Shown here piece by piece: positions 2,956-31,970 of a DNA stretch of 31,970 bases (positions are counted from its first letter, which is position 1; each line of letters starts with the position of its first letter). Origin of the DNA: a virus. Lineage: Duplodnaviria; Heunggongvirae; Uroviricota; Caudoviricetes. The stretch lies in IMG/VR virus record IMGVR_UViG_2537562192_000019; one strand, written 5' to 3'. Both the position numbers and the translations under genes were made by a program. Under the pieces are notes generated by a model. That model was not told where the DNA came from, made no database searches, and saw nothing but the letters and a program-made list of their open reading frames with translations.

Positions 2956-3129
2956 ATGAATATTGAAAACTTAAAAACAAAAGCAGAAGCAGATATTTCT
3001 GAATATATAACAAAAAAAATTATTGAACTTAAGAAAAAGACCGGGAAAGAAGTTACCAGTATTCAGTTTACCGCACGGGAAAAAATGACGGGTCTTGAAA
3101 GCTATGATGTCAAGATTAATTTAATCTGA
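2956..3129 (+). CDS. gnsB: GnsA/GnsB-family small protein (57 aa)
   Basis: Short ORF below the 60-aa cutoff of the supplied track: MNIENLKTKAEADISEYITKKIIELKKKTGKEVTSIQFTAREKMTGLESYDVKINLI. AAAGAGG Shine-Dalgarno 6 nt upstream of tandem ATGs at 2953 and 2956; followed by a terminator. Confidence 0.75.
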   Translation: MNIENLKTKAEADISEYITKKIIELKKKTGKEVTSIQFTAREKMTGLESYDVKINLI

Positions 3130-3158
3130 TGTATTCAATAATAAAATTTATCCATAAA

Positions 3159-3178
3159 CCTCGTTTTTACGGGGTTTT
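3159..3178 (+). terminator. Rho-independent terminator after the gnsB-like gene
   Basis: CCTCG / TTTTTA loop / CGGGG stem (one G-U pair) followed by TTTT at 3175..3178. Confidence 0.5.
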
Positions 3179-3280
3179 GTTATATTTGAATGGTTCCGAA
3201 TATCTAAATCACAATTGTTGATGGTTTTTATTAAACCAATGCAGTCCGGCTCAGGAGTGAGAGAAGCCGGACGTTATGGT

Positions 3281-3706
3281 TTAGCGTGGTAAGATCTGTG
3301 TAGTTTTCTGGATGCTTTCAGTAAATAGTAATGAATTATCAAAGGTATAGTAATATCTTTTTTGTTCGTGGATATTTGTAACCCACCGAAAAACTCCTGC
3401 TTTAGCAAGGTTTCTTCTGTATTCCTGAAATGTGATCTCTCTGGATTTCAGCTTATTAGAGGTCGTTTCTATAAGATGCCTATCCTTTGAAAATTTGACA
3501 GACACAATGTTTTTTAGGCCCTTTAATAACACTGTATTATCATTTTTTAATACAATATGAACATTCTCTGTGGCTAAATAGTAAATGTAATGTGAGACAT
3601 TGTGACGTTTTAGCTCAGAATAAAACCATTGATAGTTTAAATCGTTTCGAACTTTATCAAATATTTGTTTAAAAATGACTACCTGATCCATAGATAAACC
3701 TTCCAT
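3281..3706 (-). CDS. ydfO: DUF1398-family protein (YdfO-like), 141 aa
   Basis: Minus-strand ORF, AT-rich codon usage unlike the flanking phage structural genes (moron-like). Lies downstream of, and is probably co-transcribed with, the RHH-like gene at 3749..3982. Family assignment is from memory of K-12 Qin gene order. Confidence 0.65.
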
Positions 3707-3748
3707 GTGATATGAGGGGGCGTAGTCTGCACGATTATCTAAATTGCT

Positions 3749-3982
3749 TCAATCTGGTCTGACCTGTTTTCTGAGCAATTCAGTAATGTCACTCTTTTCT
3801 TTGTTTGCTTCAGAAGAAACTCTTTTTTCTGAGCACAGTCTCCGGCGGCAGGCTTCAATGACCCAGGCTGAGAAATTCCCGGACCCTTTTTGCTCAAGAG
3901 CGATGTTAATTTGTTCAATCATTTGGTTAGGAAAGCGGATGTTGCGGGTTGTTGTTCTGCGGGTTCTGTTCTTCGTTGACAT
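3749..3982 (-). CDS. Small basic protein with predicted ribbon-helix-helix-like DNA-binding region (77 aa); possibly YnfO/YlcI-like
   Basis: Minus-strand ORF MSTKNRTRRTTTRNIRFPNQMIEQINIALEQKGSGNFSAWVIEACRRRL... has a basic N-terminus, then a short beta-strand-like segment (IRFPNQM) followed by two helices, consistent with the RHH/Arc-MetJ pattern. Located just upstream of cos. Confidence 0.55.
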   Translation of the reverse strand: MSTKNRTRRTTTRNIRFPNQMIEQINIALEQKGSGNFSAWVIEACRRRLCSEKRVSSEANKEKSDITELLRKQVRPD

Positions 3983-25124: not shown

Positions 25125-28088
25125 ATGGCAGTAAAGATTTCAGGTGTACTGAAAGACGGCACAGGAAAACCGGTACAGAACTGCACAATCCAGCTGAAAG
25201 CAAAACGTAACAGCACCACGGTGGTGGTGAACACGGTGGCCTCAGAAAATCCGGATGAAGCCGGGCGTTACAGCATGGACGTTGAGTACGGTCAGTACAG
25301 CGTTATTCTGTTGGTGGAAGGATTCCCGCCGTCACATGCCGGGACCATCACCGTGTATGAAGACTCCCGACCCGGTACGCTGAATGATTTTCTCGGTGCC
25401 ATGACGGAGGATGATGCCCGGCCAGAGGCACTGCGCCGTTTTGAGCTGATGGTGGAAGAGGTGGCGCGTAACGCGTCCGCGGTGGCACAGAACACGGCAG
25501 CCGCGAAGAAGTCAGCCGGCGATGCCGGCACATCAGCCCGTGAGGCGGCAACCCATGCGACTGATGCTGCAGGCTCAGCACGCGCAGCCAGCACGTCAGC
25601 CGGACAGGCCGCGTCGTCGGCTCAGTCAGCATCTTCCAGCGCAGGAACGGCATCAACAAAGGCCAGTGAAGCATCGAAAAGTGCTGCTGCTGCAGAGTCC
25701 TCAAAAAGCGCGGCAGCTACCAGTGCCGCTGCGGCGAAAACGTCAGAAACGAATGCTTCAGCGTCACAACAATCAGCAGCCACATCTGCATCCACCGCGA
25801 CCACGAAGGCATCAGAAGCTGCGACCTCGGCCCGGGATGCGGCGGCCTCAAAAGAGGCGGCAAAATCATCAGAAACGAGCGCAGCCTCGAGCGCCAGTAG
25901 TGCAGCTTCCTCGGCAACGGCGGCAGGAAATTCCGCGAAGGCGGCAAAAACGTCCGAGACGAACGCCAGGTCTTCTGAAACGGCAGCGGGACAGAGCGCC
26001 TCAGCTGCGGCAGGCTCAAAAACAGCGGCTGCGTCGTCTGCCAGTGCAGCGTCAACAAGTGCCGGGCAGGCCTCAGCCAGTGCCACCGCCGCCGGAAAAT
26101 CGGCAGAAAGCGCTGCATTGTCCGCTTCAACAGCCACAACGAAGGCTGGCGAAGCCACTGAACAGGCCAGCGCAGCAGCGAGTTCTGCTTCCGCAGCGAA
26201 GACATCCGAAACGAACGCGAAAGCGTCGGAAACCAGCGCAGAATCCTCAAAAACGGCTGCCGCATCGTCAGCCAGTTCGGCGGCGTCATCGGCATCATCG
26301 GCGTCTGCTTCAAAAGATGAGGCGACCAGACAGGCGTCAGCAGCGAAGGGCAGCGCCACGACAGCATCCACGAAGGCGACAGAGGCAGCTGGCAGTGCGA
26401 CGGCGGCAGCACAGAGCAAAAGTACGGCGGAATCCGCGGCAACGCGCGCCGAGACAGCGGCAAAACGGGCAGAGGATATTGCATCCGCCGTGGCGCTTGA
26501 GGATGCGAGCACGACGAAAAAGGGGATAGTACAGCTCAGCAGTGCGACTAACAGCACTTCCGAGTCACTGGCGGCAACGCCAAAAGCCGTTAAGGCCGCG
26601 TATGAGCTGGCTAACGGGAAATACACCGCACAGGATGCAACGACAGCACAGAAAGGGATAGTTCAGCTTAGCAACGCGACCAACAGCACATCTGAAATGC
26701 TGGCGGCAACGCCAAAGTCGGTAAAGGCAGCCTATGACCTTGCTAACGGGAAATATACTGCTCAGGACGCTACGACAACACAAAAAGGAATTGTCCAGCT
26801 CAGTAGTGCAACCAACAGCGCATCTGAAACGCTTGCCGCGACACCGAAAGCAGTGAAAGCAGCTAATGATAATGCGAATGGTCGGGTACCTTCTGCCCGT
26901 AAGGTGAATGGTAAGGCGCTTTCAGCTGATATAACACTGACGCCGAAAGATATTGGTACTCTTAACTCAACAACAATGTCATTCAGCGGTGGTGCTGGTT
27001 GGTTCAAATTAGCAACGGTAACCATGCCACAGGCGAGTTCTGTTGTTTCAATTACGTTGATTGGTGGCGCGGGATTTAACGTGGGGTCACCTCAACAGGC
27101 AGGTATATCTGAACTTGTTTTGCGTGCAGGTAATGGTAATCCGAAGGGGATTACTGGTGCTTTATGGCAGCGCACATCGACAGGGTTTACAAATTTTGCC
27201 TGGGTCAATACATCTGGTGATACTTACGATATTTACGTTGCAATCGGAAATTATGCGACTGGTGTAAATATTCAATGGGATTATACCAGTAATGCCAGCG
27301 TGACGATTCATACGTCACCAGCATATTCTGCTAATAAGCCGGAAGGGTTAACGGACGGTACAGTTTATTCACTCTATACGCCATCAGAGCAGTTTTATCC
27401 GCCTGGCGCACCAATCCCGTGGCCATCAGATACCGTTCCGTCTGGCTATGCCCTGATGCAGGGGCAGACTTTTGACAAATCTGCATACCCGAAACTTGCA
27501 GCCGCTTATCCGTCAGGCGTGATCCCTGATATGCGTGGCTGGACGATTAAGGGCAAACCCGCCAGTGGTCGTGCCGTATTGTCTCAGGAACAGGACGGCA
27601 TTAAATCGCACACCCACAGCGCCAGCGCATCCAGTACGGATTTGGGGACGAAAAACACATCGTCGTTTGATTACGGAACCAAATCCACGAATAACACCGG
27701 GGCGCATACCCATAGTATTAGCGGGACTGCAAATAGTGCCGGTGCGCACCAACACAAGAGTTCCGGTGCATTTGGTGGCACGAACACGAGCATTTTCCCT
27801 AATGGTTATACCGCGATTTCAAATCTAAGCGCGGGGATTATGAGCACAACAAGCGGTAGTGGCCAGACTCGTAATGCAGGGAAGACATCATCAGATGGTG
27901 CTCATACCCACTCGCTGTCCGGCACTGCTGCAAGCGCAGGCGCACATGCACATACTGTCAGTATTGGTGCTCATACGCACTCCGTTGCGATTGGTTCACA
28001 TGGACACACCATCACCGTTAACGCTGCTGGTAACGCGGAAAACACCGTCAAAAACATCGCATTTAACTATATTGTGAGGCTTGCATAA
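25125..28088 (+). CDS. stf: Side tail fibre protein Stf (987 aa): lambda-like N-terminus, Ala/Ser/Thr-rich low-complexity shaft, triplicated 42-aa fibre repeat, HxH-rich C-terminal tip
   Basis: Starts [37 protein letters not shown]... (lambda Stf-like); C-terminus ...[61 protein letters not shown] matches the lambda Stf / T4 gp37-type His-x-His tip. The frame is intact. Confidence 0.93.
26520..26888 (+). repeat. Three tandem, diverged copies of a 126-bp (42-codon) unit inside stf
   Basis: Protein repeats KGIVQLS[SN]ATNS[TA]SE[SMT]LAATPK[AS]VKAA[YN][ED][LN]ANG... begin at about 26520, 26646 and 26772. The DNA copies differ at many synonymous positions, so the triplication is not recent. Confidence 0.75.
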
Positions 28089-28663
28089 TGGCATTCAGAA
28101 TGAGTGAACAACCACAGACCATAAAAATTTATAATCTGCTGGCCGGAACTAATGAATTTATTGGTGAAGGTGACGCATATATTCCGCCTCATACAGGTCT
28201 GCCAGCAAACAGTACCGATATTGCACCGCCAGATATTCCGGCAGGCTTCGTGGCTGTTTTCAACAGTGATGAGGCATCGTGGCATCTCGTTGAAGATCAT
28301 CGGGGAAAAACCGTCTATGACGTGGCTTCCGGCGACGCGTTATTTATTTCTGAACTCGGTCCGTTACCGGAAAATGTTACCTGGTTATCGCCGGAAGGGG
28401 AGTTTCAGAAGTGGAACGGCACAGCTTGGGTGAAGGATACGGAAGCAGAAAAACTGTTCCGGATCCGGGAGGCGGAAGAAACAAAAAACAACCTGATGCA
28501 GGTAGCCAGTGAGCATATTGCGCCGCTTCAGGATGCTGCAGATCTGGAAATTGCAACGGAGGAAGAAATCTCGTTGCTGGAAGCATGGAAAAAGTATCGG
28601 GTATTGCTGAACCGTGTTGATACGTCAACTGCACAGGATATTGAATGGCCAGCACTGCCGTAG
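28088..28663 (+). CDS. tfa: Tail fibre assembly chaperone Tfa (191 aa)
   Basis: [71 protein letters not shown]... matches lambda Tfa; TAATG overlap with the stf stop. Confidence 0.93.
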
Positions 28664-28760
28664 GGTAAAACATATAAATTCTATAATTAGATGTATCTTT
28701 CCATTTACGGCAAGGAAGGGGGCTTGGAACACGTAAAGCATCTCACACCGAGATTATTTT

Positions 28761-29351
28761 TTATATGTCAGGTGTCTGAAGTTTTGCTTTGGCTCTTAAA
28801 ATGGTTTGCCGCGAGGTTTTGAATTCCCGGGCAATGGCACTTATACTTACACCTGACTTAATTCGTTCGAATACCACCTGTTTCTGTTCTTCATTTAACA
28901 CAGGTGGTCGACCAAAACGTTTCCCTGCGCCGCGGGCTCTTACTATCCCGGAATGAGTGCGTTCAAGTAAAAGGTCTCGTTCAAATTCAGCGACTGCTGA
29001 AATTACTTGCATCATCATTTTTCCTGTTGGACTGGTCAGGTCAATGCCACCCAATGCCAAGCAATGCACTCTGATACCTGTTTCGGTCAGTTGTTCCACT
29101 GTTTTCCTGATATCCATTGCATTACAACCAAGGCGATCCAGTTTTGTCACAATCAATTGATCACCACATTTCAGGCGAGCAAGCAACCGGTTAAAACCAG
29201 GACGCTCACTGGTTGCTGCTGAGCCGCTAATGTGTTCTTCGATTATTTGCTGAGGTTTGATTTTAAAACCTGCACTTTCGATTTCCCGGCGTTGATTTTC
29301 GGTGGTCTGATCCAGCGTTGATATCCGACAGTAAGCAAAAATTCGAGACAT
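28761..29351 (-). CDS. pinQ: Serine recombinase, small invertase/resolvase family (Pin-like), 196 aa
   Basis: Minus-strand [32 protein letters not shown]... with the catalytic Ser in the conserved YxRxSTxxQ N-terminal motif and a C-terminal HTH ([19 protein letters not shown]). It sits right after the tail fibre genes, where Pin/Gin/Cin invertases are found in e14, Mu and P1. Confidence 0.85.
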
Positions 29352-29667
29352 AGTGAGACTCTATACGAAATTGGTGTTCATATCATAATGCATCTCAGAA
29401 AATAATTATGATTATTTTTGTGCATATTTGTATGTACACGTTCGAAAATAAACGAATGCGTATGCAACCCCGTAATTTTGGTGAGACCCAAAATTGATTT
29501 TGTGAAAAATGGCTTTAACTCGGTTTGTTTTTCGAGTTCCGGGCGGACTCAAGGAAGAAGAATAGTGTTGCGTGTTATTTTAACCAGATTTCAAGTTGTT
29601 TGGACGTGGAAAAGTGGAGCAAAATGTTGTTGAAGTGGAAAAATGATAAAAAAGTAAGTTTATTATA

Positions 29668-29901
29668 TTACATTTTACCATTTAAATTTTGGTTGTCTTT
29701 AAGAACTGATATCGCTGTTTGTAATAATTCTTTGTTATCCAGCCATGATTTTTTCTTTATGTTTCCTTCAATGTAATCAAGCAATGTTCTGGTATTAATA
29801 GGTCTTCCCTGTTTTGCTACTTCCACTACAGCATCCCCTAGGATAATTCTTACTTCAGGAAGCTGCGCAGGGAACCACTTTAGGGTGTCTTTTGATTTCA
29901 T
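29668..29901 (-). CDS. ydfK: YdfK/YnaE-family small prophage protein (77 aa)
   Basis: Minus-strand ORF 29668..29934 trimmed to the internal ATG (29899..29901), which has an AAGGA Shine-Dalgarno: MKSKDTLKWFPAQLPEVRIILGDAVVEVAKQGRPINTRTLLDYIEGNIKK... Family assignment is from memory of the K-12 Qin/Rac gene order next to pin. Confidence 0.6.
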   Translation of the reverse strand: MKSKDTLKWFPAQLPEVRIILGDAVVEVAKQGRPINTRTLLDYIEGNIKKKSWLDNKELLQTAISVLKDNQNLNGKM

Positions 29902-30686
29902 GAAGATATTCCTTAAAATATTATTGATTTTCATTGCGATATTGTATGTCTGATTCAGGATATGTTGACTTATACATCGGTTTTGTCTGGGTTATTGGAT
30001 ATGCCAATCCCTAATTTTATTAGGGCATGACTAAAAATGCTGAATATGATAAGGAGAGAAGTGATTATCAGTATGCTGTTCATATAGCCTCGAATTAGTA
30101 ATGTGTTATATATGATATAGTTGACAATTTTTATCTTGGGTGTTCTTAAAGTTCGTAGATAAACATTGTCGTTTCAGGTATACAGGAATGCTAACAGGTG
30201 GCAGCAAAAATCAGGCGGTTTATGGCGCAAGCTGAAGCGGCAACTGCAAACTATCTTATGCAGAGACTCTACACGGATTGGGTTTAAAAGTATACATAGA
30301 TAACAGTTTTTATCTGAAGAAGAAAAATATCAAGGTGATATAGCCTATATGCCTTTGATGCGGAGGAATGAATGTGATGGGAGTGATGTATCTGAATAGT
30401 TGAAAAACCGCAGACACGCCTTATGCAAGAACGTGCTGCGGTTGGCTGGTAAATTTTTCGATAGTGTGAGTATTGAATGATTTCCAGCCGTTCTTGATTT
30501 TACGCATAAATCCATGAAAAAACTACTTATCTGTTGGGGAGTTTTTTTGGGGCATATATGGGACAGAAATAGGCCCCAGATAGACACTGAGATCGAACTT
30601 AGGATGCTTTTTAAAAAATGCAACTATCTGAAAAAACCTAGAAAACGCCAAGGAAACCACAGGATGGGAAAAAACACCTGTGAATT

Positions 30687-31970
30687 ATGGATTTCCAGTT
30701 ATATTCGCTCGGCGCAGCGTTAGTGTTTCATGAAATATTTTTTCCTGAATCATCAACGGCAATGGCGTTAATTTTGGCAATGGGAACCTACGGTGCAGGT
30801 TATGTGGCGCGTATTGTCGGAGCATTTATTTTCGGCAAAATGGGCGACAGAATAGGGCGTAAAAAAGTGCTCTTTATTACCATCACCATGATGGGGATCT
30901 GTACCACCTTAATTGGTGTGTTACCGACCTATGCACAGATTGGTGTTTTTGCCCCCATCTTGCTGGTGACGCTGCGTATTATTCAGGGGTTGGGTGCAGG
31001 TGCGGAAATTTCCGGTGCCGGTACGATGCTGGCGGAATATGCACCAAAAGGTAAGCGCGGAATTATCTCCTCATTTGTAGCTATGGGAACTAACTGCGGA
31101 ACCTTGAGCGCAACGGCAATCTGGGCCTTTATGTTCTTTATTCTCAGTAAAGAGGAACTGCTGGCGTGGGGATGGCGTATACCGTTCCTGGCGAGCGTTG
31201 TCGTGATGGTCTTTGCTATCTGGTTACGTATGAATCTGAAAGAAAGCCCGGTCTTTGAGAAGGTTAATGACAGCAACCAACCCACAGCAAAACCTGCACC
31301 TGCTGGTAGCATGTTCCAGAGCAAATCCTTCTGGCTGGCAACAGGGCTGCGTTTTGGTCAGGCGGGTAACTCCGGGTTAATTCAGACTTTCCTTGCAGGC
31401 TATTTAGTGCAGACGTTATTGTTTAACAAAGCAATTCCAACAGATGCATTGATGATTAGTTCGATTCTCGGCTTTATGACCATTCCGTTCCTTGGTTGGT
31501 TATCCGATAAAATTGGTCGCCGGATCCCGTATATTATTATGAATACCTCCGCGATTGTGCTGGCATGGCCAATGCTTTCTATCATTGTAGATAAAAGCTA
31601 TGCCCCGAGCACCATTATGGTTGCACTGATTGTGATTCATAACTGTGCGGTGCTGGGATTATTTGCTCTGGAAAACATTACCATGGCAGAAATGTTCGGC
31701 TGTAAAAACCGCTTTACCCGGATGGCTATTTCTAAAGAAATTGGTGGTATTATCGCTTCCGGTTTTGGTCCTATCCTGGCGGGTATTTTCTGCACCATGA
31801 CGGAATCCTGGTATCCGATCGCCATTATGATCATGGCATATTCAGTAATTGGTTTAATCTCTGCGCTGAAAATGCCAGAGGTGAAAGACCGTGATTTAAG
31901 TGCGCTGGAAGACGCTGCGGAAGATCAACCGCGTGTTGTAAGAGCTGCGCAACCTTCCAGAAGTCTGTAA
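30687..31970 (+). CDS. ydfJ: MFS transporter (metabolite:H+ symporter-like), apparently N-terminally truncated host gene at the prophage junction
   Basis: 427-aa ORF with multiple TM segments. The MFS signature GxxxDRxGRKK occurs at residues about 51..59, whereas it normally follows TM2 at about residue 70..90, and an in-frame stop lies 3 nt upstream of the ATG. This fits a 5'-truncated MFS gene. The ORF ends at the last base of the window. Confidence 0.8.
   Translation: MDFQLYSLGAALVFHEIFFPESSTAMALILAMGTYGAGYVARIVGAFIFGKMGDRIGRKKVLFITITMMGICTTLIGVLPTYAQIGVFAPILLVTLRIIQGLGAGAEISGAGTMLAEYAPKGKRGIISSFVAMGTNCGTLSATAIWAFMFFILSKEELLAWGWRIPFLASVVVMVFAIWLRMNLKESPVFEKVNDSNQPTAKPAPAGSMFQSKSFWLATGLRFGQAGNSGLIQTFLAGYLVQTLLFNKAIPTDALMISSILGFMTIPFLGWLSDKIGRRIPYIIMNTSAIVLAWPMLSIIVDKSYAPSTIMVALIVIHNCAVLGLFALENITMAEMFGCKNRFTRMAISKEIGGIIASGFGPILAGIFCTMTESWYPIAIMIMAYSVIGLISALKMPEVKDRDLSALEDAAEDQPRVVRAAQPSRSL

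Follow-up and report, generated by a model that had tools for sequence, protein, structure and literature searches.

The pinQ gene beside the tail-fibre genes of a Qin-type prophage: very probably a Tn3-family transposon relic and not a fibre switch that lost its segment

When a pin gene lies beside the tail-fibre genes of a prophage and no invertible segment adjoins it, is it the remainder of a fibre switch, or did it reach that position by another route? The question is raised by a 31,970-nucleotide stretch of Caudoviricetes DNA (IMG/VR record IMGVR_UViG_2537562192_000019, referred to here as the window), in which an allele of pinQ (pin for short; 28761-29351, minus strand) lies next to the tail-fibre genes stf and tfa. 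Din invertases (Gin, Cin, Pin and Hin) act on an adjoining invertible segment with two inverted 26-bp crossover sites (12 + 2 + 12); these segments hold alternative tail-fibre C-termini and chaperones, and a Fis-dependent enhancer is located in the 5' part of the invertase gene. The initial annotation had read the gene as an invertase of the Pin family that is an orphan or whose fibre segment has been lost. The comparisons reported here make it very probable that pinQ originated from a Tn3-family transposon, and most likely it was never part of a Gin/Cin/Pin fibre switch, so far as its sequence and surroundings allow this to be read. The region 28718-29464 would represent the decayed right end of a replicative transposon of that family, comprising a terminal inverted repeat (IR), the resolvase gene tnpR (pinQ) and the remains of res.

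The affinity of the recombinase itself gives the first part of the answer. The open reading frame (ORF) is intact and encodes a small serine recombinase of the tnpR type, 196 residues long, with the Pfam domains Resolvase (E 2.5e-36) and HTH_7, and in this it resembles e14 PinE (P segment), Mu Gin (G), P1 Cin (C) and Salmonella Hin (H). The former assignment to the Pin-family invertases holds to the extent that the protein is a Resolvase/HTH_7 serine recombinase, but not beyond that, for PinQ is only 38-39% identical to e14 PinE, whereas PinE shares 83% identity with P1 Cin, 78% with Mu-type Gin and 55-96% with a range of phage Din invertases. The closest relatives of PinQ are instead transposon resolvases, the pMOO-32 TnpR being 84-85% identical to it and the TnpR of chromosomal Shewanella and Erwinia elements 77-78%. 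Against the Gin crystal sequence PinE scores 312 bits, PinQ 105 and pMOO-32 TnpR 108; against gamma-delta resolvase the scores are 82 for PinQ and 112 for PinE. The PinQ scores reflect no more than generic invertase-resolvase similarity, and the ‘Pin-family’ label is only nominal. An NCBIfam search returned generic sub-threshold matches and nothing more. Homologues of 57-78% identity were found in Shewanella, Erwinia, Photorhabdus, Budvicia, Burkholderiales and others in a scan of one genome per species, and 1858 records of a plasmid collection carry PinQ homologues, the best of them 85% identical.

The second part of the answer comes from the DNA that surrounds these relatives. In a Shewanella locus (L013), a divergent ORF of 1033 residues with the domains DUF4158 and DDE_Tnp_Tn3, hence a Tn3-family transposase, lies about 160 bp upstream of the resolvase gene. 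The 85%-identical homologue of pMOO-32 (L031) adjoins an annotated Tn3-family transposase gene that is likewise divergent and about 160 bp upstream, and the same arrangement was observed in seven of eight contexts of a homologue with 84% identity (P0014) and in all eight contexts of one with 78% identity (P0100); a divergent upstream transposase gene was thus present for 15 of 16 sampled relatives. The pMOO-32 element (NZ_MK169211, approximately 103103-106917) is 3,815 bp long, is bounded by 52-bp IRs (GGGGTCCGCTTGGAAAACGGAAAATATCCCACGCTAAGACTG...; GGGGTCCGCTTGGAAAACGGAAAATATCCCACGCTAAG...) and has a 5-bp target duplication, TATAG, which indicates that it has transposed. We take Tn5403 to be a possible name for this transposon group.

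In blastn, positions 3121-3808 of the pMOO-32 element match window positions 29407-28722 with 83.3% identity over 688 bp. At the outer end of this match lies a relic of the right terminal IR (IR-R; 28718-28765, plus strand), GGGG-GCTTGGAACACGTAAAGCATCTCACACCGAGATTATTTTTTATA, whose outer GGGG begins at 28718 and whose inner end overlaps the pin stop codon. It is of the IR type GGGG...ACGNTAAG, is identical at 37 of 48 positions in local alignment to the 52-bp pMOO-32 IR, with one 3-bp deletion and in the correct orientation, and is the best IR match on either strand of the whole window; K-12 pinQ has the same relic downstream. A GGGGTTG at 29461-29467 was considered as the start of an IR of Tn3 type and rejected, given that the relatives have no IR at that place. 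Neither a tnpA remnant, sought by tblastn, nor a left IR (IR-L) was found anywhere in the window. The locus is thus similar to compact Tn3-family transposons with a divergent tnpA-res-tnpR arrangement, in which the res subsites lie upstream of tnpR and the IR overlaps the end of tnpR; it differs from the pMOO-32 element in that tnpA and IR-L are missing, most res half-sites are degenerate, the IR carries the 3-bp deletion and a Cys occupies the position equivalent to R71 of gamma-delta resolvase. The transposase half would have been lost at or next to res subsite I, a loss that would make the element immobile.

How far the res site itself has survived could be judged by comparison with the transposon relatives, which have in common a res-like array of three dyad subsites built from the half-site TGTMCGAAA: a 26-bp dyad (TGACCGAAACCG-GT-CGGTTTCGTACA), a 32-bp dyad (TGTCCGAAAGTAAGTGAAATTCATTTCGTACA) and a third site, together with a conserved TATAAT. 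The res of gamma-delta and Tn3 has the same layout, sites I (26 bp), II (32 bp) and III all lying upstream of tnpR, where they overlap the tnpA-tnpR promoters, although the PinQ relatives, at about 82 bits against gamma-delta resolvase and with TGTMCGAAA as their half-site motif, constitute a different subfamily. The window aligns in register with the res of the relatives, and its identity to pMOO-32 falls outward from the gene (counts based on a MAFFT alignment). Nearest to pin, the promoter and site III (29352-29392) are identical at 36 of 41 positions. The site III-like element (29362-29383, minus strand) has as its pin-proximal half TATACGAAAT, abutted by the hexamer TATGAT (29382-29387), which resembles the conserved TATAAT. 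With a position weight matrix this half-site, at 29362, scores 13.2 of a possible 16.3, and it is the only one in the relic that still matches TGTMCGAAA, the other five of the six having lost the consensus. The best half-site match of the whole window (13.6 of 16.3) is TGACCGAAAC at 29071-29080 on the minus strand; it falls within pin, in the codons that specify QLTETG, and its resemblance to the half-site is probably fortuitous.

Further out, the relic of subsite II (29393-29424, minus strand; TGCACAAAAATA-ATCATAAT-TATTTTCTGAGA) keeps the 32-bp geometry of the relatives and agrees with pMOO-32 site II at 20 of 32 positions, in register; the blastn homology to the transposon ends inside it, at 29407. 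A more diverged copy of the O145 type in E. coli (RM9154, L003) has an intermediate site II sequence, TGTACAATAATAAGCGAAATAATTTTTGGATA, which supports homology and not coincidence. The centre of the relic is a palindrome with perfect 8-bp arms, AAAATAATTATGATTATTTT, at 29399-29418, overlapping the -10 hexamer of the pinQ promoter. The spacer between sites II and I retains 8 of 14 identities to pMOO-32, and beyond it lies the probable relic of subsite I, the crossover site (29439-29464, minus strand; CATACGCATTCG-TT-TATTTTCGAACG, 26 bp), which is strongly decayed: 12 of 26 positions agree with pMOO-32 and 12-14 of 26 with site I of six relatives, ungapped and in register. Past site I the identity is at background (5-8 of 22 positions, then about 33%; for pMOO-32, 7/22 over a 22-bp palindrome discussed below and 22/65 further out). 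A consensus scan places a sigma-70 promoter for pin, TGTACA-N16-AATAAT, at 29411-29438 on the minus strand, overlapping the relics of sites I and II, and genomic SELEX (systematic evolution of ligands by exponential enrichment) lists the same hexamers as a constitutive RpoD promoter of both pinQ and pinR (PMC3946193). A different arrangement is seen in Erwinia oleae (L017, 1268-2652), where two divergent genes for PinQ-type resolvases (72% and 78% identical to PinQ) have a common, roughly symmetric res-like array III'-II'-I-II-III that looks like the product of recombination between two inverted res sites.

Set against these results, the proposal of a lost fibre segment is very improbable and already contradicted. 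It has in its favour that the gene stands next to stf-tfa, as gin, cin and pinE stand next to tail-fibre genes, and that databases name it ‘DNA invertase’ or ‘Pin’. Against it stand first of all the protein comparisons, 38% identity to PinE as opposed to 55-96% among true phage Din invertases. The arrangement also differs, in that pin is convergent with tfa, whereas pinE diverges from its segment, and in that the DNA upstream of pinQ is a res relic and not a pix site; in the 5' part of pin no DNA similarity to pinE was detected by which its enhancer could be traced, and Fis sites are too degenerate for recognition by sequence. Unlike in the Din systems, the gene is not flanked by 26-bp inverted sites, and genes for alternative fibres or chaperones are absent. 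Searches by tblastn with the Stf and Tfa proteins of the window and with e14 StfP, TfaP, TfaE and StfE against all 31,970 bases detected neither a further copy nor a fragment, inverted or not, on either strand; stf and tfa are single-copy and co-directional, and inverted fibre ORFs are absent, as the initial annotation had noted. Its failure to see a convincing gix- or hix-like site was also borne out: no site of the Din type (gix/hix/pix) is present in the window, the best match to TTCTCNNAAACCNNGGTTTNNGAGAA having 6 mismatches in 18 positions, the same as in shuffled sequence, while in the control scan both e14 pix sites were recovered, at 1 and 2 mismatches. A search for long inverted repeats between the pin region and stf/tfa gave only weak pairs of 71-86% identity over 20-28 nt, of the kind expected by chance. 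The gene is therefore indeed an orphan, with no segment, paired site or alternative fibre fragment adjacent; the part of the proposal that speaks of loss did not stand, because the flanks are not fibre DNA and are colinear with the IR-R, tnpR and res of a Tn3-family transposon.

If pinQ came from a transposon, it must be asked what its product can still do. The six catalytic positions compared were Y6, R8, S10, D36, R68 and R71 (Tn3 numbering). In PinQ, Y7, R9, S11 and R73 are present, and the equivalent of D36 is Glu across the whole clade. In HMMER alignments, however, Cys76 (codon TGC at about 29124-29126, minus strand) pairs with R71 of gamma-delta resolvase and with the equivalent Arg in Gin. 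The motif reads KLDRLGCN in PinQ of the window, in K-12 PinQ and PinR and in a diverged prophage allele (P0009), and KLDRLGR in all transposon relatives and in PinE. Two prophage alleles separated by a dS of about 0.23 share the Arg-to-Cys replacement, which is therefore ancient and has persisted. R71 of Tn3 resolvase belongs to a set of six residues at which substitutions prevent recombination and make cleavage roughly 1000 times slower, with R71A and R71K both abolishing recombination (PMC2794168). The ORF is nevertheless under purifying selection, as indicated by ratios of nonsynonymous to synonymous substitution (dN/dS) of 0.15 against pMOO-32 tnpR and 0.34 against the diverged prophage allele, and the recognition region of its helix-turn-helix is nearly the same as in the transposon resolvases.

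What the comparisons show is homology and colinearity with the transposon, a relic of the IR, the disappearance of tnpA and of most res half-sites, the Arg-to-Cys change and purifying selection. From these a present-day role may be proposed, in which PinQ would be mainly a DNA-binding protein with strand exchange that is weak at most. Tn3 and gamma-delta resolvases repress their own promoter, and by analogy PinQ would bind the surviving res subsites, which overlap its promoter, and repress its own synthesis. With a single decayed res nearby, the resolvase has no local substrate to resolve, nor is there one for inversion. The gene would never have belonged to a fibre inversion switch, which would explain the absence of an invertible segment and of gix/pix sites. 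Taken as a whole, the inferred role included, this explanation is considered likely.

A quite different use of the module would be multimer resolution, tnpR and res having been kept to serve a circular phage genome in the manner of the resolvase/res cassettes of plasmids. The module is indeed present in viable lambdoid phages such as Tritos, 2H10 and mEp460_ev081, and related resolvases are widespread on plasmids. Such a function is still very improbable, since five of six res half-sites are without consensus, the catalytic Arg has been replaced and phages of the lambda type have no need of such a system. Exaptation is another possibility, and one that we hold only tentatively: a resolvase captured once by a lambdoid phage, which lost the R71 equivalent and its cognate res but which purifying selection has preserved in thousands of E. 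coli prophages as well as in viable phages, would have become a non-catalytic or very weakly catalytic DNA-binding factor. Such a PinQ or PinR might, for instance, skew or enhance the inversion of the e14 P segment that PinE carries out, or control genes nearby, and were this true the published ‘PinQ invertase’ defence would work indirectly.

Several points weigh against the transposon-relic explanation, or against the role attached to it. The similarity of site I is weak (12-14/26), which leaves the exact breakpoint and the completeness of res uncertain. The family consensus is still recognisable in no more than one or two half-sites, so that even binding by PinQ is uncertain, and the proposed autoregulation follows the precedent of Tn3 and gamma-delta. 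Mutants of R71 in Tn3 resolvase are ‘not inert’ (PMC2794168), and residual catalysis by PinQ might accordingly persist. Most directly, Kirigo et al. (2025) reported that the inverted fraction of the e14 P segment rises from about 30% to 88% when PinQ is over-produced and that inversion falls when pinQ is deleted, and they read their data as direct invertase activity of PinQ in trans (PMC12529663).

In that interpretation PinQ is a working invertase which acts on the pix sites of e14 and switches StfE/StfP chimeras as a defence against T2. By quantitative PCR, 88% of segments were inverted with pCA24N-pinQ, as against 30% in the wild type, PinE giving 49%; T2 survivors over-producing PinQ carried the 1797-bp P inversion, PinQ protected against T2, and the effect was abolished by deletion of stfP, stfE or e14, the authors stating that PinQ acts on another prophage and not on adjacent DNA (PMC12529663). 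That the ORF is intact and under purifying selection also counts in its favour. On the other side, deletion of pinE alone locks the P segment although pinQ and pinR are still present (PMC12529663), and 88% in one orientation is unlike the equilibrium of about 50:50 expected of a simple invertase (PinE, 49%), which suggests selection or an indirect effect. PinQ is also without the Arg equivalent to R71, which Tn3 resolvase needs for recombination (PMC2794168). The pix half-sites score at most 5.4 of 16.3 against the half-site model of the PinQ family, and the crossover site of that family is 2 bp longer between its half-site motifs than pix. The strain list of the study includes no over-production of PinQ in a pinE-deleted strain, and a resolvase or transposon affinity of PinQ is unmentioned in it (PMC12529663). 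From the published data, direct catalysis and an indirect effect cannot be told apart. Direct inversion in trans, which is compatible with a transposon origin and requires real catalysis on sites of the Din type, is a possible but doubtful account. With PinQ as a transposon-derived, mainly DNA-binding protein, the effect on e14 could arise from inefficient direct catalysis upon over-production, or indirectly through PinE.

The locus is an ordinary one and already named (pinQ/pinR), and the lack of an adjacent invertible segment is already in print, the orphan state of pinQ and pinR in E. coli K-12 having been described (PMC12529663). What is added here is a corrected ancestry, that of a Tn3-family resolvase relic with remains of its IR and res, and a lineage-specific replacement of a catalytic Arg; in a literature search of incomplete coverage, no paper linking pinR or pinQ to Tn3-family elements was found. 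Both points are modestly useful, as they bear on a recent functional claim. Genome annotations and the 2025 paper treat PinQ as a bona fide invertase, in the latter case one that flips DNA in another prophage directly, and the sequence features argue that the claimed flipping of the P segment in trans needs direct testing. A ‘Pin next to tail fibres’ should moreover not count as evidence of a lost host-range switch.

A further question concerned a 22-bp palindrome upstream of pin, which the initial annotation had taken as a possible regulatory site or half-relic of a recombination site. The palindrome, AATTTTGGTGAGACCCAAAATT, was found as described: it reads AATTTTGG-TGAGAC-CCAAAATT, has perfect 8-bp arms and occupies exactly 29474-29495, its only occurrence in the window, at a distance of 123 nt upstream from the pin ATG (120 had been given). 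This AT-rich dyad, for which no function could be detected, lies 9 bp beyond the res relic on its distal side, in DNA that belongs to the ydfK side and not to the transposon. The suggested significance could not be upheld, as it is outside the res homology, is not unusual and has arms that vary among copies. Perfect dyads with arms of 8 bp or more and spacers of 8 bp or less number seven in the window, compared with 5.1 +/- 3.1 in dinucleotide shuffles, and in the AT-rich part (28664-30686) there are two where 0.45 are expected, 31% of shuffles having at least one; the palindrome is therefore no more than would arise by chance. As RNA it folds no better than shuffles (z = -1.0), and there is no terminator call, no U-tract and no Rfam family. 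The search proposed earlier for a second, inverted copy gave none in the window at up to 3 mismatches, whether for the whole palindrome or for its arms at any spacing.

About 75 prophage copies were compared with regard to this dyad. The commonest form, CGATTTTGGGTCTCACCAAAATT, has 7-bp arms and also gives rise to an overlapping perfect palindrome, CAAAATCGATTTTG. The 8-bp arms of the window are due to a G-to-A single-nucleotide polymorphism at 29496 seen just in the window and its 100% match; 12 copies have CCAAAGTT and others TTTTAGG or an inserted A, all of them uncompensated. One diverged lineage has a shorter spacer with 7-bp arms (TTTTGGT-TAC-ACCAAAA), the dyad is lost in a decayed pseudogene copy (L024), and in the aligned upstream regions of the transposon relatives the palindrome is absent from all. 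Such variation points to drifting sequence and not to a fixed dyad bound by protein. As a candidate for res site I it was rejected, because site I aligns at 29439-29464, leaving the palindrome outside the homology (7/22), and because the TTTTGG/CCAAAA arms point the wrong way relative to the half-site TGTMCGAAA. A function as operator for pin or ydfK, as ydfK terminator or as recombination site is improbable. It would draw on the survival of the symmetry TTTTGG...CCAAAA in most E. coli copies, on the 7-bp arms kept by the diverged lineage despite its other spacer, on the disappearance of the dyad from the pseudogene copy, and on its position, the -35 hexamer of the mapped promoter lying some 36 bp downstream. 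It is opposed by a frequency not above chance, by the lack of a U-tract and of significant folding energy, by uncompensated arm changes and a variable spacer, the latter arguing against a fixed site for a dimer, and by the absence from transposon relatives and of a second copy in the window. The 22-bp palindrome is best regarded as incidental AT-rich sequence just outside the relic, and the palindrome at 29399-29418 is the more meaningful of the two, since it forms the centre of the res site II relic.

As to its wider setting, the last 11 kb of the window belong to a Qin-type lambdoid prophage, of which they form the right arm; the prophage is inserted in ydfJ, and its genes run J-lom-stf-tfaQ-pinQ-ydfK-ynfT up to the truncated host gene. 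The genes are gpJ (20914-24393), lom (24461-25060), the single side-tail-fibre gene stf (25119-28088, plus strand), the tail-fibre assembly gene tfaQ (28088-28663, plus strand), ydfK (29668-29901/34, minus strand) and truncated ydfJ (30687-31970), stf and tfaQ being known from annotation and from the Pfam domains phage_tail_N, Phage_fiber_2, Collar and Caudo_TAP, and serving as context outside the relic. The stop codons of tfa and pin are 97 bp apart. The relic would lie between ydfK and the tail-fibre genes, in the accessory region of this lambdoid prophage of the Qin/Rac type. The 2.7 kb from the 3' end of tfa to the ydfJ junction (28000-30700) match E. coli 2012EL-2448, where the gene names are annotated, at 100% of DNA positions, and are covered to at least 80% in 2062 of 5426 complete E. 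coli genomes. K-12 has the module twice, as tfaQ-pinQ-ydfK-ynfT in Qin and as tfaR-pinR-ynaE-ynaM in Rac. The window protein is 99% identical to K-12 PinQ, 100% to K-12 PinR and 100% to an annotated pinQ product. Gene order, IR relic and insertion in ydfJ are all shared with the K-12 pinQ locus; the window prophage, unlike that of K-12, still has a full-length stf and tail genes.

Among phages, PinQ occurs with at least 99% identity in 11 lambdoid phage records, the next best match being 61% identical and the Din invertases all 37-39%, a distribution that fits a single capture. In phages without pin (lambda, mEp332, ev099) the homology to the window stops at the tfa stop codon (about 28653-28669), and the 50 bp between tfa and the IR are present only in pin-carrying phages. 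It follows that these 50 bp move together with the pin module, and a target duplication could not be defined. In comparison with window positions 28552-28760, Tritos, HannyBb and PhiR63_1 have different tail-fibre genes, the common part being the last 110 nt or so of tfa and the pin module. The pattern of sharing among phages with and without pin indicates that the pin-ydfK module is transferred as a cassette, a joint of which falls within the 3' end of tfa. On the ydfK side, DNA at 29465-29940 was seen only in E. coli prophage contexts and in no other plasmid or transposon.

Some mosaic alleles were also observed. Compared with window positions 28500-29800, an E. coli allele of the P0009 cluster (L113, NZ_CP134663; 374 member sequences) has about 90% DNA identity from the 3' end of tfa through pin and 97-99% from 29400 on, and the joint lies close to the res relic. 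Two protein entries (P0004 and P0006) are chimeric, with about 90 N-terminal residues of the transposon type (Arg76) and the remainder of the PinQ type, while another (P0008) is of the PinQ type for its last 11 or so residues only, which suggests either recombination of plasmid-borne transposon copies with prophage pin genes or assembly chimeras in metagenome-derived entries. Finally, the AT-rich region between ynfT and the ydfJ junction (30303-30440, plus strand) gave a sub-threshold Rfam match to the Shigella small RNA CssrB (28.7 bits against a gathering threshold of 76; E 0.0024).

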